DNA from: Candidatus Nanosyncoccus sp.
GTDB lineage: Bacteria; Patescibacteriota; Saccharimonadia; Saccharimonadales; Saccharimonadaceae
Length of the DNA stretch: 64,000 bases
NCBI GenBank assembly: GCA_045530815.1
Contig: JAZSCU010000024.1
Span: 65-64,064, forward strand
Reading direction: 5' to 3'
A model generated the notes under the pieces. That model saw only the letters and a list, made by a program, of their open reading frames with translations, was not told where the DNA came from and made no database searches. A program made the position numbers and the translations under genes. Shown in pieces: positions 20,431 to 42,812 of the stretch; the stretch's first letter is position 1, and each line of letters begins with the position of its first letter.

Positions 20431-23148
20431 ATGAAATTCGCAAGTAGTTATGAACCGGGGGAATATGAAACTGACATTTATGCCGCTTGGGAAGCAGCTG
20501 GTGTTTTTAACCCTAACATTCCTACTGTCCCTGTTGATGTCGATAGCGACGGCCACGATGATCGAGAAGAAAAATCAAAATGCTTTTCTATTGTTATGCC
20601 GCCGCCAAACGCTAATGGTGATTTACATATCGGCCATGGTTTAACTGTAGCTCTTGAAGATTCCCTTACCCGTTATTACCGTCTAAAAGGCGCCTCCTCC
20701 TGGTATATTCCGGGCGCTGATCATGCCGGGTTTGAAACCTGGGTAGTTTACGAAAGAGAGCTCGAAAAACACGGCCATACTCGCTTCGAGTTTGATCGCA
20801 ATGAACTTTATGCTAGGGTCTGGGATTTTGTTGCAGAGCAACGTGGTAATATGGAACTCCAACTCCGCGCCTTGGGTGCTTCCTGTGCTTGGGACGATCT
20901 TACCTTTACTCTTGACGAAAACGTCATCGACCGCGTTTATACCACCTTTGAAAAAATGTGGAACGATGGCCTTATTTACAGAGGTAAAAAACTCGTGAAC
21001 TTCTGCCCCAAACACCAAACCGCCTTCGCTGATATCGAGGTTGAACATAAAGACGAAAAAGGTACTCTCTGGGAAATCGCATATGATGACATTATCGTAT
21101 CCACTACAAGACCCGAAACTCTTTTTGGCGACACTGCCGTTGCTGTCAATCCCGAAGATGAGAGGTACAAAGATCGCATCGGCAAAACAGTTCATCTTCC
21201 TCTAACCGATCGCGAAATTCCTATTATTGCTGACGAGCATGCTGATCCCGAGTACGGCACCGGCGCAGTCAAAATCACCCCTGCCCACGATTTTGACGAT
21301 TTTGAAGTGGGCGAGCGCCACAATCTAGAACAAATTCAGGTCATTCAAGAAGACGGCAAAATGATCAATGTTCCCGAAAAATATAACGGTCTTTCTACCG
21401 CCGAATGCCGCAAACAGGTTCTAAAGGATTTGAAAGAACAAGGTCTATTAAAAGGTGAGAAAAAAATCGTTCACTCTGTTGCTCATTGTTATAAATGTGA
21501 TACAGTACTAGAACCCATGCTAAAAGAGCAATGGTTTGTAGATGTCGAAAAACTTGCAAAGACAGCAATCGCGCACCTCGAAGCCAACGAAATACAATTT
21601 TATCCAGAAAATAAGCAAAAAGTCCTAATTAACTATCTAAATAACCTAAGAGATTGGAATATCTCTCGCCAAATTCCTTGGGGTATCGCTATCCCAATGT
21701 TTAAAAAAGCAAATGACGATGCGACAGACGAGCCAGATTGGATTTTTGATCGTCGCACCAACCTAAAAGAAATCGAAAAGAATGGTGTTAAGTATATACG
21801 AGACGAAGATACTTTTGACACTTGGTTTTCGAGTAGTCACTGGCCTATCGTCTGTACTGACTGGTCCGAGGATCACCACACCCCATATTATCCATTGAAT
21901 GTCATGGAAACCGGCGCCGACATTCTCTTTGCTTGGGTTGCCCGTATGATTATGATGGGGCTTTATGTTACAGATGAAGTACCGTTTAAGGAAGTATATC
22001 TTCATGGGCTCGTCCTCGATGAACACGGCAAAAAAATGAGCAAAAGCAAAGGCAACGTTATCAACCCTATGGACCTTGTTGCAAAATACGGTTCCGATGC
22101 GTTTCGTCTCGGTATCTTAAGGGGCCGCTCCGCCGGCATGAATCAAGCCTTTTCCGAAAACTCTGTTATTTCTGGTCGCAACCTCTGTAACAAACTCTGG
22201 AACATCTCCCGCCTCATCCAATCCCTCGTCGATGAAGAGGGCAGTAGTAGCGAATTTGAAAATAGTGCTACTCGAGGGCTTCCGGAGGTTACGACCGAGG
22301 ATGAGGGCGCGAGCCCCGTAACGAGGGGCGCGGGCGACCCGTCCCGAGAGAGCACTATTTCAAATTCGCCATATACAACTCTCAACATGGGCGAAGATTG
22401 GATCTGTCGCGAGATCAACAATTGTCTGTCACAGGTTGAAGACGACATCAAAACCTACCGTTTTGCCGAAGCAGTCGAAACATTGTACCAAACTATTTGG
22501 GATAAATATGCCGACTGGTTCCTAGAGAGTCAAAAAATTTTCCAGAATAAGGAGCTACTGGAGCGTACTCTAGAAACACTTTTGATTGCTCTTCACCCCT
22601 TTGCTCCTTTTGTTACTGAAACTATTTGGCAAAACCTCAGCTGGACCGAAGGCTTCATTATTACCGCTAAATGGCCCGAAAAACTAAAATATGACCCTAT
22701 TTCAGCCGAAAACTTTGAAAACATAAGAACTATCGTTTCTGAGGTTAGAGGCACCCTACAGGCCCTTCCAGGCACCAATAACGCGAAAAAATACACCTTG
22801 TTGTACGACAATGACAGCCTCGTAGAGGATAATTTACTACTTATCAAGACTCTGACAAAGGTCCCTACGATAAATCCTCTCAGTGGCGCCCCTAGAGGTC
22901 TCCGCCTCGCCTTGGCAAATCACGAGCTCTATTTAGATGTTCCTGCCGAAGTTGTAGCCGAATATAAGGAAACACTTACCGACAAAATTCTCTCTGTTGG
23001 GCGCGAGCTAGACGCCTTAAATCTCAGAATGCAAAATCCAAATTATGTCGAAAGAGCCCCTGCTCACCTCGTCAAAGAAACCAAAGATCAGATCAAGGAA
23101 AAAGAATCTCTCATCGATCGCCTAAAACAACAACTAGAATTAATTTAA
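20431..23148 (+). CDS. valS: Valine--tRNA ligase carrying a 40-aa palindrome-encoded insertion
   Basis: PPPNANGDLHIGH, TTRPETL.GDTAVAVNPEDERY, WNISRQ, DTWFSS, KMSKSKGN, C-terminal coiled arm. Confidence 0.97.
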   Translation: MKFASSYEPGEYETDIYAAWEAAGVFNPNIPTVPVDVDSDGHDDREEKSKCFSIVMPPPNANGDLHIGHGLTVALEDSLTRYYRLKGASSWYIPGADHAGFETWVVYERELEKHGHTRFEFDRNELYARVWDFVAEQRGNMELQLRALGASCAWDDLTFTLDENVIDRVYTTFEKMWNDGLIYRGKKLVNFCPKHQTAFADIEVEHKDEKGTLWEIAYDDIIVSTTRPETLFGDTAVAVNPEDERYKDRIGKTVHLPLTDREIPIIADEHADPEYGTGAVKITPAHDFDDFEVGERHNLEQIQVIQEDGKMINVPEKYNGLSTAECRKQVLKDLKEQGLLKGEKKIVHSVAHCYKCDTVLEPMLKEQWFVDVEKLAKTAIAHLEANEIQFYPENKQKVLINYLNNLRDWNISRQIPWGIAIPMFKKANDDATDEPDWIFDRRTNLKEIEKNGVKYIRDEDTFDTWFSSSHWPIVCTDWSEDHHTPYYPLNVMETGADILFAWVARMIMMGLYVTDEVPFKEVYLHGLVLDEHGKKMSKSKGNVINPMDLVAKYGSDAFRLGILRGRSAGMNQAFSENSVISGRNLCNKLWNISRLIQSLVDEEGSSSEFENSATRGLPEVTTEDEGASPVTRGAGDPSRESTISNSPYTTLNMGEDWICREINNCLSQVEDDIKTYRFAEAVETLYQTIWDKYADWFLESQKIFQNKELLERTLETLLIALHPFAPFVTETIWQNLSWTEGFIITAKWPEKLKYDPISAENFENIRTIVSEVRGTLQALPGTNNAKKYTLLYDNDSLVEDNLLLIKTLTKVPTINPLSGAPRGLRLALANHELYLDVPAEVVAEYKETLTDKILSVGRELDALNLRMQNPNYVERAPAHLVKETKDQIKEKESLIDRLKQQLELI
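22250..22369. repeat. 120-bp palindromic element inserted in frame in valS
   Basis: Arms GCGAATTTGAAAATAGTGCT / AGCACTATTTCAAATTCGC (19 bp, one bulged A); GC-rich core with GCCCC/GGGGC hairpin. Confidence 0.88.
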
Positions 23149-23690: not shown

Positions 23691-24410
23691 TCAACCTGCT
23701 TCATACTCCTCATCGCTAATATATGTTCCGCGCAAGTCACTGAACTCCCCTGCGTCGATTTGTCTCCAGTCCCCGGGGCCGCCTTCGTAGTAGGCTCGCA
23801 CGATATTAACTTGGATGATTATGCATCCTTGTTTCTCATCGTACTGTGGTATATCAGCAAGAATATATTGCTCTACGAGCTCAATTACCTCCTTAACACC
23901 GGCCCGGAACCAGAACCCGGAACAGTCTGAGTCATCAACCCATCCATCATCCGAATTGACGATAAAGTCGTCCTCTAGTTCGTCGTCCTGGATACCGTCA
24001 AGATACATAGCGATTTCATCCTCCAAAGTTTCCTTGTCGATCTTTGTAAAGATCCTCAGAGTCGACTCGACACCTTCCTGCATAGGAATGCGCCCCTCCG
24101 TAATACCTTTACGGAGCTCAGTCAATTCATCCCACCATTTCTGGATGATCTCGCAGATCGCCTGGACGTCACCGCTACTATAAGCTTCATTTGTTTTTAT
24201 AATAGTTACTTCTCCTTCCTTAACATCGATATTGATCCCTTTGTTTACATTTTCAAATGCGTATTTCATAGTTCCTTTTCCTCCTTCGTTTTTTACTTCA
24301 CTATTATTGTTTACGACTTCCTTATTAATATTGTTATTCATTGCATTCTCTCCTTTTCTGTTGTTCATCGTGATTTCCATGTTACCTTTTGCTTCTGTAT
24401 TAGTGTTCAT
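23691..24410 (-). CDS. Hypothetical acidic protein with repeated in-frame SD-ATG starts
   Basis: 239-aa ORF, AGGAGG SD, consensus promoter upstream, hairpin near 23570-23602 downstream. Confidence 0.7.
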   Translation of the reverse strand: MNTNTEAKGNMEITMNNRKGENAMNNNINKEVVNNNSEVKNEGGKGTMKYAFENVNKGINIDVKEGEVTIIKTNEAYSSGDVQAICEIIQKWWDELTELRKGITEGRIPMQEGVESTLRIFTKIDKETLEDEIAMYLDGIQDDELEDDFIVNSDDGWVDDSDCSGFWFRAGVKEVIELVEQYILADIPQYDEKQGCIIIQVNIVRAYYEGGPGDWRQIDAGEFSDLRGTYISDEEYEAG

Positions 24411-24745: not shown

Positions 24746-27700
24746 TTAGAAATTTCCTCCTAGCATTAATCTAAGATAGTCTTCTTCCGCGATTCGTCGG
24801 AGCTCTTCTTGGTAAGCACTTTCCCCACCTCTATTACGCGCCTCTGTTAGGCGTCTTTGAATTCTATCTTGCCTTTCCTGCCATGCTCTATATCCCGCCA
24901 AACTTCCAGGGAAACGTTCTTCTATACTATCTATCCCAATTGCTTCATCAGGGAAGTTTCGTTGCATATAATCACTAAATCCTACCCGACCGCGCTCGCC
25001 TGAACCATAGGTTCTAAGGAGTAACGCCTTCTTGTCGCCATCTCCTAAATACAACATGGCATTTCTAATAGCCTTATCTTTACCCAATTCTTCGTAATCC
25101 TGTATATCAACATGTGGGACTCGGGCAATTCGCTGATCATTATTTCGGATTGCATCGAGTTTGGAATAGAGGAATAGGTCTGTAAAATCTTCGTCTTTAT
25201 CTAGGCGCATCACATACATGGCGCTTTCATTATTGAAGCTCTCCATGATAACGCACTGTTTACCGCGGAAATTAAATTTAAAACCAATATATGAGTTTTG
25301 ATTATCGATATTAATATTGGCGAATGGATCATCTGGGTCATAGTCCTCAACCGATTCGCCGGAGAAGCCATCCATAAACCAATCAACCGAGTCTTCTCCT
25401 TCTGGATTATCAAAAGCCCCAGGTATATTGTTTTTGATCCAAAGATACCACTCATTCAACGCCATCACCTTCCTCAAACCAAAATCTTCAGGGGCTCCTT
25501 CGCCCTCGTATGCAGGAATTTCAGGTTTTGGTCTAGGAGGAGTAACACGAGAAGTGTAAGATTCATCAGAAAACGTACCTTCTACCGGCTCTAGACCATA
25601 CCCCTTAATTTTCTCTACCAGTTCTTTCTTATAACGATTAATCAATCTCTTGACGTCATCGTGTGAAAGTGACCTACGAGTCATGTGTGCTAGACCCTCA
25701 TCCAAAGCTTCAGCTTCCTCAGCTGCCTTTCTAGCTTCCTCTCGTTTCTTCTGTATTACATAATCCTTATAAGCTTCGTTGTTGTTTCTAAAACTGCCTA
25801 TCTTATTCTTTAATCCTCGTGGCGTATCTTCATCCGCCCATACACTATGTAGCATAAAATCAAATTTATCTGGATTAGTGACAAAAACGTTTTCGAAATA
25901 CCATTCAGCAGCCGAGCTTTTTTCACCTTTTGTGGCCTGCAAGACACGCATAAACCCATCAAACGCCTTATTGAAGACCTCAGGATCGCTAAAGTCAAGT
26001 CCTATCTCATCTTTATATTGCTTATAGAAGTCAGTTTCAAATATCTTCAGAAAATTATTATCTGGGTCCGAATAAGATGGATCTGTTATCCCAGTAGCCA
26101 AGCACTCGAGAAGAGCACTGCGGGCTGACTCCATCTTACCAGTAAATTCTACCTCTCTATCTGGATACAACATCTTAAGGACGTCGGCCGGAGGTAAGAA
26201 TTCTTCATAAGCGGCAAGCTCTTCAGGTACTTTTATAAGATCTGTAGAGGACCCAAAGGTCCATTTAACTTTCTCTCTATTCATCATCTCTTCAAGTAAT
26301 TCTTGTCGTCTGTCCTCATTAGCCCTATACCCAATGAGAGTACGTCCCAGATCAAAATTAGCTCCTTCTACTGCAGCTTTCTTGCGTTCCTCTATGGCGG
26401 AGACAAGTTCAGGATTGTCTTTTTCGGCCTCTGCGATAGTAGCTAGCATTTCACGTCGTTTTTCTTCTGCTGCGCTTGACACATCATCTGACAAATATCT
26501 AATTTCACCATTAATGTTTCTAACCCCAAAACGTGAACGCTCCCGGTCGAAGACCAAGCCATTTTCCGATGGAGCATCCATCATTTCAGCGACCAACTCT
26601 TTAAGAGCAAAGACTTCTGGGATGACGTTATTTTCATCTTCTTTATAACCGTTTGCTAGGATTTGCCTTCTTAGGCTTTGGTCATTAACGTCTAATCCTA
26701 GTTCTTGAATTTTTTCGACGATCTGTTCTCGGCTCAAATCACCAGCCTTAAAGAAGAGAGTACCCTCTTTAACACCTTTTGCAACCAAAGATTCTAATAC
26801 GAATTTTTCTTTTTCAGGCGTTAGTTCTTCAACCGTTTCCTGTAGTTCGCCACTTAAAAGTTCGGTCTGAGCACGATTAAGGATTGCTTGAGCTACTATA
26901 GGCGTTTCGTATGTATATTCAAAATTATATCTATGCCTATAAGAGTTCCAGCCACTATGCTTATTTTTAACTCTGAGCTCAGTACTTAGCGAACCAGCTA
27001 AACCTTCAGCTAATTCTTCTTTGCTAGGAGCGTCCATAGAGCCCTGCTCCATTTTGCGTTGGCGAGCTTCCCTGTAAGCGTCCTCCGCTGTAACGTCACC
27101 TTTTCTTAATGCTTCTTGTCTTTTCCCGAGATATTCAACTACTAAGCGCGGTATATCTTCTTTCATCCTTTCCATTCTGTATTTGGTGAACTTAGTATCA
27201 GGGAACATTTCTTGAGTAATTTTTTTAATCTCCTCAGGCGTTACAAACTTTGCTACCGCCTCGACACGTGCCTCATAAGCATCTTTTTCCTTACGCTCTT
27301 CTTCCTCACGTGCTCGTTTTTGTTCTTCTCTTTCTAACCTTGATTGCTTATCTTGCACATCTTCATAGTGCCTTGGCCTTCTCGTTTTTTCTCCGTTCTT
27401 TTGCCAATCTTTATATGCTGGTGTAGGTGCCCATACGTGTACTTTGTCATCATCCGGATCACGCATCAGTTTATAATCTTCCTTTTCGAAAGTTTCTGCG
27501 TCAAGCGGAGCACCCAATTCTTCAGCCTCTTTAAACGTATCTTCATGCTCTTTCCAGAATGGGTCAAGCTCACTCTTTTTTTCATCGTCAGCAGCTATAC
27601 CCACTGACCCCAACTTCCCTGCTAAACGGCTTTCATCTTCCATTTTTGCATCTTCAGCAGCTAAATCCGTTAGCCCTTGCAACTCCGCTAAACGCCTTTC

Positions 27701-27973
27701 ATAATCTTCTTGTGACTCACCATCTAGCTGAGGGTAGGTTTCTTCGCTAATGGTGCTATCATCTGTTGCCCCACGAGGCTCTTCTGCGAGATTGTCGAAC
27801 CCTCTCTCGATAACTTTGGCCTGCTGGTCCTCCGGCAAATCTTGCCCCAAATAAACAGTTTCACCCTTATCATTTGTTGTCGAGTGTGATGCCATTTGTT
27901 CTGCAATTGCTTGCCATTCTTTGCCGTTGCCCTGTTCGTCGCCTTGTGTATTTTTGTGATCTTCAGTGTTCAT
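24746..27973 (-). CDS. Large Glu/Asp/Lys-rich hypothetical protein (1075 aa)
   Basis: Long uninterrupted ORF with AAAGGAG SD; no motif recognised. Confidence 0.8.
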   Translation of the reverse strand: MNTEDHKNTQGDEQGNGKEWQAIAEQMASHSTTNDKGETVYLGQDLPEDQQAKVIERGFDNLAEEPRGATDDSTISEETYPQLDGESQEDYERRLAELQGLTDLAAEDAKMEDESRLAGKLGSVGIAADDEKKSELDPFWKEHEDTFKEAEELGAPLDAETFEKEDYKLMRDPDDDKVHVWAPTPAYKDWQKNGEKTRRPRHYEDVQDKQSRLEREEQKRAREEEERKEKDAYEARVEAVAKFVTPEEIKKITQEMFPDTKFTKYRMERMKEDIPRLVVEYLGKRQEALRKGDVTAEDAYREARQRKMEQGSMDAPSKEELAEGLAGSLSTELRVKNKHSGWNSYRHRYNFEYTYETPIVAQAILNRAQTELLSGELQETVEELTPEKEKFVLESLVAKGVKEGTLFFKAGDLSREQIVEKIQELGLDVNDQSLRRQILANGYKEDENNVIPEVFALKELVAEMMDAPSENGLVFDRERSRFGVRNINGEIRYLSDDVSSAAEEKRREMLATIAEAEKDNPELVSAIEERKKAAVEGANFDLGRTLIGYRANEDRRQELLEEMMNREKVKWTFGSSTDLIKVPEELAAYEEFLPPADVLKMLYPDREVEFTGKMESARSALLECLATGITDPSYSDPDNNFLKIFETDFYKQYKDEIGLDFSDPEVFNKAFDGFMRVLQATKGEKSSAAEWYFENVFVTNPDKFDFMLHSVWADEDTPRGLKNKIGSFRNNNEAYKDYVIQKKREEARKAAEEAEALDEGLAHMTRRSLSHDDVKRLINRYKKELVEKIKGYGLEPVEGTFSDESYTSRVTPPRPKPEIPAYEGEGAPEDFGLRKVMALNEWYLWIKNNIPGAFDNPEGEDSVDWFMDGFSGESVEDYDPDDPFANINIDNQNSYIGFKFNFRGKQCVIMESFNNESAMYVMRLDKDEDFTDLFLYSKLDAIRNNDQRIARVPHVDIQDYEELGKDKAIRNAMLYLGDGDKKALLLRTYGSGERGRVGFSDYMQRNFPDEAIGIDSIEERFPGSLAGYRAWQERQDRIQRRLTEARNRGGESAYQEELRRIAEEDYLRLMLGGNF

Positions 27974-30776: not shown

Positions 30777-30812
30777 ACCTTAATTGTATCATAACCAAGT
30801 TTGACTTATTCC

Positions 30813-30985
30813 CTAACCCCAAATTTTTATTTGCATTGAGCAAACCCGAGAAAGTTTTTATGGGATTTAGGAAAATTTAACTCGCGAACCGTGAAGACAG
30901 CCGTGAGACGAGCAAATTGTCCGTTAAAAATCCCATAAAAATTTTACCGGCGTGAAGCGAAGCGCAAATAAAAATTAGGGTTTAG
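30813..30985. repeat. Rod-shaped palindromic element (about 173 bp), homolog of 45161-45335
   Basis: Stems AATTTTTATTTGC/GCAAATAAAAATT and TTTTTATGGGATTT/AAATCCCATAAAAA; loop motifs shared with the 45161 copy. Confidence 0.88.
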
Positions 30986-31003
30986 TGATTAACCCAAACA
31001 TGC

Positions 31004-31045
31004 TTATGCACAACAAATCCACAAGCTTTTTCCACAAAAACCACA
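31004..31045 (+). promoter_or_regulatory. Cluster of co-oriented DnaA-box-like 9-mers
   Basis: TTATGCACA 31004, AAATCCACA 31015, TTTTCCACA 31028, AAAACCACA 31037. Confidence 0.4.
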
Positions 31046-36705: not shown

Positions 36706-37797
36706 ATGAAAAGTGTAAAGCAAATCGTAGTCGAACAAACTGACCGTGGTTACGGACATTTACTTGAGGACAAACTCGATGAATGGGCTTGTCATCAGAT
36801 CAAGCTGTCAAGTTCTTATCGCAACGGAAGTTTGGCTCCGGTATCATCTACAACGGATGGCGGCAGCCGAAAACGAGCGATCATGGAACGCGTTAAAATC
36901 ACAATGGCGCATAGCTCCATGTCTGAAAAAGAGGTGGTTTGCCGCCTCATCGAGCTTGAGAGACGCCTGGAAGATCCGGGCCTCTTAGAGAATTTCGAGT
37001 ATTTTGACATTCCGAGCTCGGAATTCATGTTGTCATTCTACTTCACACTGTGGGATGGCAGAATTGCCGAAGTCATGGATTTTCTCCATGATTATGGGAA
37101 AGATCTGAGCGGTGTCGCCCAGCATATTCCCGAAGGAGATGTCTGGCGCAAGATGTCTTACTTCGAGGGCATGAACATCGACAAAAGAAAACAGGCAAGA
37201 GATGTGGTGGAGTTTATGAACTTTCATCATGTCAAAAAAGCCACCTCTTTTGGCGGTGGAAACATTCCCGAAAGATTCTATGGGATGCCCGAGGATCTGG
37301 AGTTGACAGTCTTTGATAATGGCCCTGTGAGCTCACTCCCGGAATTGTTTCCGGACGAGAAGCAGCGGAAAAGGGTGAATTACATTCACGAATTATTATC
37401 CGCGGCTCCCCGTTACCCAGAATTAATTAGTACACAGGAACTGGTATGGATGCACGGCGTCTCTATGTACCTGGATGAAACATCGCTGATTGGCGCAATC
37501 GTCTGCGCTCACGCTCTGCTTCAGCCAGATGGATATATGTGCTATGACTACCTGCTGAACAACCAATCCTTGCAGAGAGCAGTTGTTACACAGGGATGGC
37601 CATATAATCCAGAAAAACCGATGACCATTTTCGAACGGCCTGAGACAGCCATTGAGTATGGCTTAAACATCATTAAAGCCGTCAACAAAAAGCTGGAAGG
37701 AAGATCCTTCATGGATGTAGTTGATGTCAAAGTCAATATTCTGGATCCATGGGGACCAACCAGTGTGTATTTTATACTGCAAAAACACGGAGAATAG
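36706..37797 (+). CDS. Hypothetical protein with a possible degenerate class I SAM-methyltransferase fold
   Basis: ATSFGGG, LTVFD, WMHGVSMYL, LLQPDGYMCYD spaced like class I MTase motifs; AAGGAGGT SD. Confidence 0.45.
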   Translation: MKSVKQIVVEQTDRGYGHLLEDKLDEWACHQIKLSSSYRNGSLAPVSSTTDGGSRKRAIMERVKITMAHSSMSEKEVVCRLIELERRLEDPGLLENFEYFDIPSSEFMLSFYFTLWDGRIAEVMDFLHDYGKDLSGVAQHIPEGDVWRKMSYFEGMNIDKRKQARDVVEFMNFHHVKKATSFGGGNIPERFYGMPEDLELTVFDNGPVSSLPELFPDEKQRKRVNYIHELLSAAPRYPELISTQELVWMHGVSMYLDETSLIGAIVCAHALLQPDGYMCYDYLLNNQSLQRAVVTQGWPYNPEKPMTIFERPETAIEYGLNIIKAVNKKLEGRSFMDVVDVKVNILDPWGPTSVYFILQKHGE

Positions 37798-40283: not shown

Positions 40284-41453
40284 CTAGTCAATCTCCACCC
40301 TTGGATAGATATTAAGAGAATATGGATCCGTTGGCTCTACCCCAGATTTTATTTCAAAGAAAGCTGCCGCCGCCACCATCGCACCATTGTCTCCAGATAA
40401 TTTTAGCTCAGGAAAGTATACTTTTACATTTTTATTAAATTTTTCTATCATTTTCTTTCGCAACTCTTTGTTAGCGCTTACTCCTCCTGCTACTACAATT
40501 GACTTAGTATCAGGGTATTTTTCTAGTGCTAACTTCATTTTTTCGCACAAAATCTCTATCGCGGTTTTTTGGAATGAAGCCGCAAAATCACAAACTTGCT
40601 TCTTTGATAGTAATTCTTTTAGCTGATGGGAAGGATAAGAAATTGGCACCCCCACCTCTTTTTGCACTGCTCGAAGCACCGCTGTTTTTAGTCCCGAAAA
40701 CGAAAAATCTAGCCCTGGGATTTTTGGGTGCGGGAGCCGATACATATTTGCGTCACCAGAGAGATCATAGTTGCCACTAGCTGCAGCTGCAATCGATGGT
40801 CCTCCCGGATACGGCAATCCTAGAATTTTTGCTACTTTGTCAAAACACTCCCCCACCGCATCATCCCTTGTCGTCCCCACAATCTTAAACTGGTTATGTG
40901 CCGGCATATAAAGTATTTGGGTATGCCCACCCGAAACTACCAGTGCCAAAATCGGAAATTTCGGACTACAATTATTCATGTCCAGCTCGAGGGGATTCGG
41001 AGTCTGGCAAGGCGAGGACGGGCGTCGATCGCCCATGCCGATGGGTCGACCGGACGCGGCTCGAGAGTGAGCATGAATATTGTCTCCGGCTAACCAGTTT
41101 GCATAAACATGTGATTTAAGATGATGCACCGCATAAAGAGGCTTATTGTATAAAATTGCCAAAGTTCTCGCCGTCAAAGTACCAATTAAAAGGGAACCAA
41201 GAAGCCCCGGTGCATGCGTCACCGCAATTGCATCAATATCGTTCCACGAACAGCTAGCATCCTCTAGGGCCTTTTTTACGACGGGCATCATCACCTCTAG
41301 GTGGCTTCTCGCTGCCACCTCTGGTATTACCCCACCATATTCTGCAAAAATATCAATTTGCGACACCACAACATTAGACAAAATTTTTACTCCATCCTCT
41401 ACTACCGAGGCGGCCGTCTCGTCACAACTAGTCTCAATCCCCAATATTTTCAT
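40284..41453 (-). CDS. tsaD: tRNA N6-threonylcarbamoyltransferase TsaD with a palindrome-encoded insertion of about 42 aa
   Basis: ILGIETSCDET, GGVIPEVAARSH, HHLKSH, VSGGHT, DDAVGECFDKVA..LGLPYPGGP, FSFSGLKT, GDNGAMVA. Confidence 0.96.
   Translation of the reverse strand: MKILGIETSCDETAASVVEDGVKILSNVVVSQIDIFAEYGGVIPEVAARSHLEVMMPVVKKALEDASCSWNDIDAIAVTHAPGLLGSLLIGTLTARTLAILYNKPLYAVHHLKSHVYANWLAGDNIHAHSRAASGRPIGMGDRRPSSPCQTPNPLELDMNNCSPKFPILALVVSGGHTQILYMPAHNQFKIVGTTRDDAVGECFDKVAKILGLPYPGGPSIAAAASGNYDLSGDANMYRLPHPKIPGLDFSFSGLKTAVLRAVQKEVGVPISYPSHQLKELLSKKQVCDFAASFQKTAIEILCEKMKLALEKYPDTKSIVVAGGVSANKELRKKMIEKFNKNVKVYFPELKLSGDNGAMVAAAAFFEIKSGVEPTDPYSLNIYPRVEID
40962..41088. repeat. Palindromic element (about 126 bp) inserted in frame in tsaD
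   Basis: Arms CGGACTACAATTATTCATG / CATGAATATTGTCTCCG; inner CTCGAG..CTCGAG and CCCAT/ATGGG; core resembles the valS element. Confidence 0.82.
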
Positions 41454-42450: not shown

Positions 42451-42686
42451 AAGCAAAAGTCTTCCGTCCTCCTTGCTCGAAATATCATGAGCAAACTCCC
42501 TATATTCTCTCGTTTCGTCGTCCGGTCGAACCTACGGTTCTCATCCTACCAGTTTTTATTATAGAAAATACCCGAACAAATGCTCGGGTATTTTCTATGG
42601 CTAGGCTGGCAGGATGACGGCTTCGCTTCGCTACGCCTAGACCTCGCTTCGCTCGGTGCGAACCTACGGTTCTCATCCTACCAGCT
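42451..42686 (-). repeat. tRNA-Gln-linked repeat array (two structured units + hairpin)
   Basis: 18-bp copy of the tRNA 3' end TGGCTAGGCTGGCAGGAT at 42598; 26-bp direct repeat CGAACCTACGGTTCTCATCCTACCAG at 42527 and 42659. Confidence 0.88.
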
Positions 42687-42691
42687 TAAGT

Positions 42692-42739
42692 ATATGAATT
42701 AAAATAAGACTCCTTCGGAGTCTTCTTCTAATTCATATG
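42692..42739 (-). terminator. Hairpin directly after tRNA-Gln
   Basis: ATATGAATT..AAGACTCC-TTCG-GAGTCTT..AATTCATAT. Confidence 0.7.
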
Positions 42740-42812
42740 GCTAGGCTGGCAGGATTCGAACCTGCGAATGACGGGACCAAAACCCGTTGCCTTACCACTT
42801 GGCGACAGCCTA
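42738..42812 (-). tRNA. tRNA-Gln(TTG)
   Basis: TAGGCTG/CAGCCTA acceptor, ACGGG-TTTTGGT-CCCGT, TTCGAAT, GCCA. Confidence 0.96.

Follow-up and report, generated by a model that had tools for sequence, protein, structure and literature searches.

Rickettsia palindromic elements (RPEs), described by Ogata et al. 2000, 2002 and summarised in passages of two papers (PMC2229807, PMC10969869), are according to those passages hairpin repeats of ~105–150 bp that lie between genes and in frame within many conserved genes, the inserts being neutral or slightly harmful where tested. [quoted passage not shown] Here we analyse a 64-kb stretch of a Saccharibacteria (TM7) genome, referred to as the window, in which the valine-tRNA ligase gene valS carries a 120-nt palindromic element in frame. 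This palindrome is one copy of a dispersed family of GC-rich hairpins in ruminant-gut Saccharibacteria. The family is apparently undescribed, and full-text literature searches combining Saccharibacteria or the Candidate Phyla Radiation (CPR) with palindromic elements or MITEs returned nothing relevant.

The valS element is an imperfect palindrome with 60% GC in a window of 39.9% GC, and the GC-richest 80-nt island of the 64 kb (72%) falls inside it. The interval 22240–22380 folds at −65.5 kcal/mol (z = −6.1), a stability equalled by 0 of 200 shuffled sequences, and the element ranks first in fold stability among all 140-nt segments of the window. In the minimum-energy fold, an outer stem of 27 pairs encloses two inner hairpins (Table 1). 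An earlier interpretation made from the letters of the window (hereafter the sequence-only reading) had described a palindromic 120-bp unit in frame in valS, GC-rich relative to the gene, and its sequence, coordinates and translation are all as claimed. Two of its details require adjustment. The terminal inverted repeat is perfect over 12 bp (22250–22261 with 22358–22369) and continues for 7 further pairs past a 1-nt bulge (an extra A at 22262), so that the reported 19-bp repeat holds with the bulge allowed but not as a perfect repeat. The 40 codons encode the peptide as quoted but occupy 22249–22368, the first nucleotide of the element standing at codon position 2; the element length is a multiple of three. 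Removal of the insert leaves ..LVDEEGSSPYTTLNMGEDW.., as previously stated. The 40 added residues are rich in Ser, Glu, Thr, Gly, Pro and Arg, and the predicted tryptic peptide of the insert is GLPEVTTEDEGASPVTR.

The family extends far beyond valS. With the window element alone as query, neither BLAST nor a 3-mismatch pattern search of the window returned a further copy; plain sequence search is blind to the other copies because the subfamilies have drifted too far apart and each copy has arms of its own. When the inserts of several orthologues were compared by BLAST with 528 kb of Saccharibacteria loci, many matches fell outside the valS site, in femAB, a P-type ATPase gene, tsaD, a trmA-like gene, the N-terminus of valS and the window itself (40987–41066). 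An iterated nhmmer profile of the 86-nt core of the element gave 36 matches, 27 of them unique, in valS neighbourhoods. All 27 lie within long open reading frames (ORFs) whose frame stays open through each copy, and each core has 3–5 frames open, the range across the family being three to six of six. A 23-nt core word recovered 44 copies (41 distinct) at 36 loci in JGI metagenomes, and the covariance model R1 identified 45 copies at 29–109 bits in loci outside its seed. Taken together, the profile and the covariance model of the core yield ~68 distinct copies in ~0.8 Mb of related ruminant-gut Saccharibacteria DNA.

According to Pfam, the metagenome hosts are PheT, LeuRS, ArgRS, FemAB, P-type ATPase, Der, QueA and TGT, together with TsaD, UvrC, BipA, LepA, TatD, MnmA, a DNA methylase and RarA. 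ValRS carries family copies at two sites, and the family stands in frame in at least 16 different housekeeping genes. Of the 44 metagenome copies, 26 run in sense with the host ORF and 18 are antisense to it. About a quarter of the distinct metagenome copies (~11) are intergenic or just upstream of a gene, and intergenic copies often occupy short spacers between genes, convergent ones included. Both occupied and empty alleles were found for valS, tsaD and femAB.

This dispersal already largely refutes a regulatory structure specific to the valS mRNA, whether a mimic of the tRNA-Val anticodon arm for autoregulation or a translational pause at a domain boundary. ThrRS is known to bind the thrS operator for autoregulation, and the extremely stable valS hairpin lies exactly at the start of the anticodon-binding domain. 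Its apex in the window, a 5-bp stem with a 7-nt loop (G-U-AAC-G-A), is like the valine anticodon loop, and some orthologues have UGAC. However, the apex is UGGCGA in two other loci (L093 and L094) and different again in L095, so that A35 and C36 are not conserved; 19 of the 120 orthologues lack the element, no Rfam or tRNA match was obtained, and copies of the element lie between genes and, in either orientation, inside at least 16 unrelated genes. The anticodon-arm mimic was thus rejected on account of the copies with UGGCGA or an unrelated apex, and valS-specific regulation as a whole is extremely unlikely.

At the gathering threshold, Rfam identified only tRNAs in the window, located elsewhere; a permissive scan of 22150–22470 gave one chance-level snoRNA match (E = 0.49), and ARAGORN found no tRNA or tmRNA in the element. 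A known RNA family, ribozyme, T-box or tRNA-like element was accordingly set aside. A diversity-generating retroelement, intein, intron or translational bypass was likewise rejected, since no models matched and the insert, which recurs in many genes, is short and free of stops and has a length divisible by three. Phage and plasmid collections gave no match to the family. For the insert peptide, a word-index search gave no match and a representative protein library only six weak ones: a TatD protein (P0123) and two short ORFs (P0122, P0124), all with the peptide, one thrombospondin-repeat protein considered spurious, and two unannotated entries. Of the 80 loci obtained by searching genome contigs with generic ValRS peptides, 8 were from Saccharibacteria.

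The window contains a second copy, in tsaD. Run without filters, R1 found exactly two copies, in valS (91.7 bits, 22256–22365) and tsaD (80.7 bits), scores that are to be expected because both were in the seed; nothing else in the window exceeded 15 bits. These two copies are also the only two strong GC islands of the window, the tsaD copy being the second richest at 70%. Its core spans 40985–41070 (nhmmer), and it adds 36 residues in frame (TsaD 126–161, IHAHSRAASGRPIGMGDRRPSSPCQTPNPLELDMNN; 40971–41078).

The valS site was compared among the 120 best ValS homologues, all from Saccharibacteria (76–94% identity, 865–983 aa), with insert length gauged as the distance between the invariant anchors NKLWNISR and YRF. 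This distance is 49–53 aa in 19 of the 120 proteins, which have a short linker, and 80–105 aa in 101. The orthologue alignment that the sequence-only reading had called for therefore reveals the empty site, with ~40 residues fewer exactly here. Together with the dispersed family, it bears out the view that an RPE-like palindromic insertion has added peptide sequence to an essential enzyme. The insert peptides of the 120 homologues sort into many unrelated types, and the insert DNA from 20 valS loci forms a long hairpin every time (−65 to −98 kcal/mol). Of the three frames through the apex ..CCCCGU(RRCG)ACGGG.., one contains a stop and the other two yield SPVTTG or EPRNDGR, depending on the orthologue. 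As one core is read in different frames, it is the nucleic acid that is conserved and not the peptide.

In alignment with the Thermus thermophilus ValRS (1GAX), the match stops at residue 597 and resumes at 627. The intervening interval comprises 68 residues in the query against 29 in 1GAX, with the 40 extra residues inside it, which places the insert at the start of the anticodon-binding domain. An AlphaFold2 run on ValS with 34 close homologues predicted a helix (576–600), a coil (601–652) and a second helix (653–674), but with a mean pLDDT of only 45 the model is unusable for surface mapping.

A vertically inherited, lineage-specific ValRS loop with a function in the protein, its palindromy being incidental or secondary, would agree with an insert at this site in 101 of 120 orthologues and with a long insert even in a ValS of 62% identity (L006). 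Against this, the DNA core is conserved and read in two frames while the peptide is not, near-identical ValS proteins carry unrelated inserts, and the same DNA occurs in other genes. In addition, some empty alleles resemble deletion remnants (e.g. ..ESEN|IISNS.. in P0107). Inheritance of a functional loop is, on this evidence, very unlikely. The insert of L006, a distant Saccharibacterium, is an unrelated 190-nt hairpin of −97 kcal/mol at the same valS site (2268–2459), from which the valS loop appears to be a long-standing hot spot.

The core has the consensus U(C/U)GAGGG–P2–P3–CCCGAGA and forms a three-way junction closed by a GGG/CCC helix flanked by tandem G-A; two hairpins branch from the junction, the short P2 and the long, GC-rich P3. 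It is surrounded by an outer stem (P1) of 15–27 bp whose sequence differs in almost every copy, with the pairing kept. What is conserved and mobile in the element is its inner 86-nt core; the terminal repeat, by which the sequence-only reading had bounded the insert, varies by copy.

Base pairing was tested on 41 distinct copies outside the model seed, in an alignment fitted to the model. Model base-pair cells were paired in 93% of cases, compared with 68% after shuffling and 34–44% with slid partners, and compensatory changes were present at 33 of 41 pairs. All 17 modelled P1 pairs (17/17) covary through all Watson–Crick types, and P1 is therefore essentially arbitrary sequence kept complementary. 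A MAFFT alignment not fitted to the structure gave 76% paired cells versus 61%, and RNAalifold found compensatory changes at 9 of 13 pairs. In 62 of 65 copies the element-sense strand is the more stably folded of the two, by ~7 kcal/mol; a strand test on G-U pairs was uninformative, with equal counts (123 vs 128).

The 120-nt unit of the window subfamily also occurs at the N-terminus of valS in L094 (87% over 121 nt, the GCGAATT.. ends included). The boundaries drawn by the sequence-only reading are thus sensible, as the whole unit recurs at another site with its ends. The femAB copy of L089 is 94% identical to this unit over 108 nt. In copies that differ in subfamily and host gene, a 33-nt module, CTCGCCCCTTGGGACGCGAATTGCCGAAGGCAA, occupies the identical position in the P3 apex, with GT(R)(R)CG on one side and ACGGG on the other (Table 1); this is a module that recombines or else a nested mini-element.

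Such an architecture could also belong to a functional structured RNA module that was spread or co-opted as a site for RNase III or other processing, as an mRNA stabiliser or as a terminator, with a junction that serves the host. P2 and P3 covary strongly, the tandem G-A and the GNNA-type or closed tetraloops are RNA-like, and the sense strand is the better folded. The frequent location of intergenic copies in short spacers and the presence of the core in metatranscriptome contigs point in the same direction. Nevertheless, with copies in both sense and antisense, host mRNAs carry either strand, and the greater stability of the sense strand is a shared trait of one core sequence rather than 65 independent observations. 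Presence and absence also vary among near-identical strains, and no Rfam family was matched. We consider a host-serving RNA unlikely.

Comparison of closely related strains revealed turnover. L082 and L093 have valS DNA that is 95% identical; L093 carries the element in valS and has an empty femAB, and L082 carries it in femAB and has an empty valS. The core in L082 femAB equals that in L093 valS (100% over 88 nt), and the outer 12 bp of the stems are wholly different. The window and L081 (P0002) are ~99% identical in DNA up to both insert edges and carry inserts of unrelated subfamilies, with 62 mismatches in 193 aligned positions. Among the 120 proteins, many ValS pairs with 95–99% identical flanks have unrelated inserts, pairs at 98–99% among them, and similar inserts are also found where ValS identity is only 81%. 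At femAB and tsaD, as in valS, several subfamilies are present alongside empty alleles.

Either the same loops have been struck repeatedly, or inserts have been swapped by short-patch recombination or gene conversion. Relative to L081, the window shows patches of 10–17% divergence in a background of ~99% identity (21200–21299, 22600–22699 and beyond 23000), a pattern that suggests that strains often recombine over short tracts, both within valS and nearby. At some of the same loop sites, coding hairpins of a second, unrelated family (~165 nt, peptide ..CDFDDCEPRTLRN..) were noted, and a third type was seen in valS only (Table 1). Host codons serve as one P1 arm in two cases, L091 (DRFE, valS N-terminus) and L082 (AEVS, femAB), and the opposite arm is an inverted copy that is missing from empty alleles or from alleles with a different element. 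These two cases hint that the stem may grow into the host gene by template switching.

The copies are also biased in orientation. In valS neighbourhoods, 35 of 36 matches lie on the same chromosomal strand irrespective of the strand of the host gene, orientation agrees in 19 of 21 comparisons at multi-copy loci, and the element-sense strand is the C-rich strand in 65 of 80 copies. This bias would fit a replication-linked single-strand mechanism, but it is only suggestive because it is confounded by shared site ancestry, gene-strand bias and unknown replication origins. Although most genes of the window are on the + strand, that strand has a negative GC skew in each 4-kb bin; the coding strand, presumably the leading one, is therefore C-rich, opposite to what bacteria usually show.

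Read evidence was taken from assembler contigs. Sheep and cattle gut metagenomes provide the public reads closest to the window, and in the sheep-gut runs the contigs show an L081-type relative. Read support for the insertion, a point on which the sequence-only reading had staked its claim, was obtained on one side: the right junction is crossed at 99% identity, and contig X4 (22321–22420, 2 differences in 100 nt) crosses it for the window allele. The left junction of this exact strain is spanned by no contig in the four best runs, the contigs breaking at the element. The core shows several-fold excess depth in ruminant-gut contigs, with loose ends into many flanks, as expected for a multi-copy repeat. 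Cattle-gut metatranscriptome contigs contain the core at high depth, which is compatible with transcription of the inserts, DNA carry-over being possible; no RNA run from the window strain itself was found.

The contig breaks and the unspanned left junction would be expected of an assembly or binning artefact, with a chimeric join through the repeat. The frame is nonetheless intact over both junctions, the right one is crossed as described, and ENA, NCBI, JGI and Logan assemblies carry inserts at the same codon position. Some of these are nearly identical and come from independent assemblies of other samples (L092, L091; P0003–P0005), so that the insert is not an assembly artefact; the likelihood of a chimera is negligible.

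We consider it probable that the valS element belongs to a selfish, recently mobile, RPE-like or MITE-like family of non-coding GC-rich hairpins that is tolerated as a protein loop. The family is dispersed, its hairpin covaries, it occupies genes in frame in both orientations, and near-identical strains differ both in its presence and in the subfamily they carry. Under this explanation, hairpin repeats would have colonised the small genomes of a ruminant-gut Saccharibacteria clade. Being GC-rich in an AT-rich genome, the core lacks stops in three to six frames, so that insertions into genes would survive if they preserve the reading frame by their length and fall in a loop that tolerates them. 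ValRS would be made and active with the 40-residue loop, and the insert would be neutral for the protein or slightly harmful to it. The conserved core may be the module recognised by the mobilising machinery, and P1 pairing could be kept, and sometimes extended into host codons, by hairpin-templated repair (template switching), by element-level selection or by both.

Several points weigh against this explanation. No transposase was found among 10 ORFs of the window or in the Pfam lists of the loci (~0.8 Mb, with partial Pfam scans), and the same ~0.8 Mb yielded no autonomous parent, half-element or split match flanking an ORF. No target-site duplication was detected: direct repeats at the hairpin ends are absent in 39 of 62 copies and 1–3 nt long in the rest, as chance predicts, though the ends are defined by the fold and a short duplication could escape notice. 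No target or flank motif was found beside the hairpins. Terminal repeats are not conserved between copies, and the outer stems of the 41 copies differ at every position. Recombination between strains or gene conversion could yield subfamily swaps at the same loop without fresh transposition. The neutrality of the peptide is assumed, and the AlphaFold model is too poor to place the loop on the surface. That the mRNA and protein of this strain contain the insert is likewise presumed.

It is possible, though rather doubtful, that the family represents a new type of hairpin-based mobile DNA in which only the ~86-nt core is copied, possibly in single-stranded form and with a bias for one replication strand, the arms are made per site, and occupied loops are preferred landing sites. 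Fold-back or template-switch synthesis at each new site would then produce or lengthen the long, perfectly paired outer arms, with host codons recruited in some cases. Preferred landing sites would explain both the repeated replacement of subfamilies at the same codon and the 33-nt module at the P3 apex.

Table 1 Coordinates of the valS and tsaD copies in the window and of related hairpin features at other loci
Feature	Locus	Position	Strand	Basis
valS (valine-tRNA ligase), 905 aa	window	20431..23148	+	ORF listing; homologues with Pfam tRNA-synt_1 and Anticodon_1
Palindromic element, full 120-nt unit of the window subfamily	window	22250..22369	+	repeat search, fold, composition
40 inserted codons, SEFENSATRGLPEVTTEDEGASPVTRGAGDPSRESTISNS, ValS residues 607–646	window	22249..22368	+	missing in 19/120 orthologues
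P1 outer stem, 5' arm	window	22250..22279	+	minimum-energy fold, covariation
P1 outer stem, 3' arm	window	22341..22369	+	minimum-energy fold, covariation
Conserved family core, UCGAGGG..P2..P3..CCCGAGA	window	22269..22353	+	nhmmer core profile, E = 5.7e-15
P2 small inner hairpin, apex GGU-UACG-ACC	window	22281..22301	+	fold and covariation
P3 apical hairpin, contains GAGCCCCGUAACGAGGGGC	window	22305..22340	+	fold
tsaD host gene, 389 aa	window	40284..41453	-	aligned with 339–345-aa orthologues without insert
Second family copy, whole hairpin	window	40961..41089	+ (antisense to tsaD)	BLAST to L093 insert, nhmmer, R1, fold
33-nt P3-apex module, copy	L091	11923-12040		
33-nt P3-apex module, copy	L103	4714-4833		
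33-nt P3-apex module, copy	L129	2535-2654		
33-nt P3-apex module, variant	L117	4047-4164		
33-nt P3-apex module, variant	L126	2938-3059		
Second hairpin family, in valS	L090	11807-11983		
Second hairpin family, in P-type ATPase gene	L096	19186-19347		
Second hairpin family, in femAB	L091	17320-17470		
Third hairpin type, seen in valS only	L095	4928-5092		

The window has other structured regions. Inverted repeats of 42–46 nt lie at 11336–11422 and 42668–42762; in each, the 3' portion of a tRNA gene (11276–11357, + strand; 42741–42812, − strand) forms one arm and an inverted partial copy the other, and the AT-rich spacers between the arms are similar. Long AT-rich nested hairpins at 1394–1553 and 30790–31008, apparently intergenic and unrelated in sequence to the GC-rich family, are among the most stable folds of the window after GC correction. 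A string of short hairpins at 36900–37120 (−92 kcal/mol, z = −5.8) lies in ORF 36706..37797, which has no Pfam match; this region is not GC-rich and does not match the family model. A 1075-aa, very acidic ORF (24746–27973, − strand) and its neighbour (23691..24410) both lack a Pfam domain, and the block they form is absent from the syntenic valS neighbourhoods of other loci.

Coding palindromes have so far been known mainly from Rickettsia, with a few scattered cases, and the present family is an independent and abundant one in CPR episymbionts, whose genomes are likewise tiny. This suggests that selfish hairpin DNA in essential genes is a recurrent outcome of genome reduction and not an oddity of Rickettsia. 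The copies offer many natural experiments on loop insertion, carried out in aminoacyl-tRNA synthetases, tRNA-modification enzymes and GTPases, and the filled, empty and swapped alleles of near-identical strains can aid the study of how proteins tolerate or use new sequence. In practical terms, the repeats break metagenome assemblies, inflate the apparent divergence of CPR marker proteins, and can mislead alignments and phylogenies of ValRS, TsaD and similar proteins. A conserved core with hypervariable paired arms also poses the mechanistic question of how such elements move.

Set beside known systems, the family differs from Correia/NEMIS, ERIC and the Wolbachia repeats. In those elements the terminal inverted repeats are conserved; as a rule they are A+T-rich and bear TA ends together with target-site duplications, and they lie mostly between genes. 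The present family showed none of these traits. The ends of classical MITEs are transposase binding sites, whereas the terminal repeats here are not conserved and no target-site duplication was found. REP/REPIN (RAYT) and IS200/IS605 systems combine hairpin-dependent mobility, no target-site duplication and strand-biased orientation. REP/REPINs are extragenic with a conserved GTAG motif, and IS200/IS605 relatives insert beside a fixed tetra- or pentanucleotide. The present family resembles these systems, as they are generally described, in hairpin structure and lack of target-site duplication, and may resemble them in orientation bias; no REP- or IS200-type motif and no Y1/HUH transposase gene was seen in the ~0.8 Mb examined, where Pfam scans were partial. 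The GC clusters of yeast mitochondria are GC-rich mobile palindromes of ~30–50 bp in a very AT-rich genome, some of them in frame in var1. They are likewise short, GC-rich, mobile and in part in frame in an AT-rich setting, but they belong to a eukaryotic organelle, are much shorter, have another structure and have no known relation to the family.

The closest likeness is to RPEs, so far as the passages on them extend. It covers repeat size, a long stem-loop, dispersal in a small reduced genome, occurrence between genes and unusually frequent in-frame insertions in conserved housekeeping genes that add a peptide loop, together with no known transposase and an unclear target-site duplication. 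The element would thus be analogous rather than demonstrably homologous to RPEs, and strict RPE membership is very unlikely given the Saccharibacteria host: the present hosts are Saccharimonadota/CPR episymbionts instead of Alphaproteobacteria. In contrast to RPEs, the family is GC-rich in an AT-rich genome, and it has a conserved inner three-way-junction core with a hypervariable outer stem in place of conserved ends. It is, moreover, read in several frames and both orientations rather than as a single conserved peptide, and at a given site one subfamily is replaced by another among near-identical strains.

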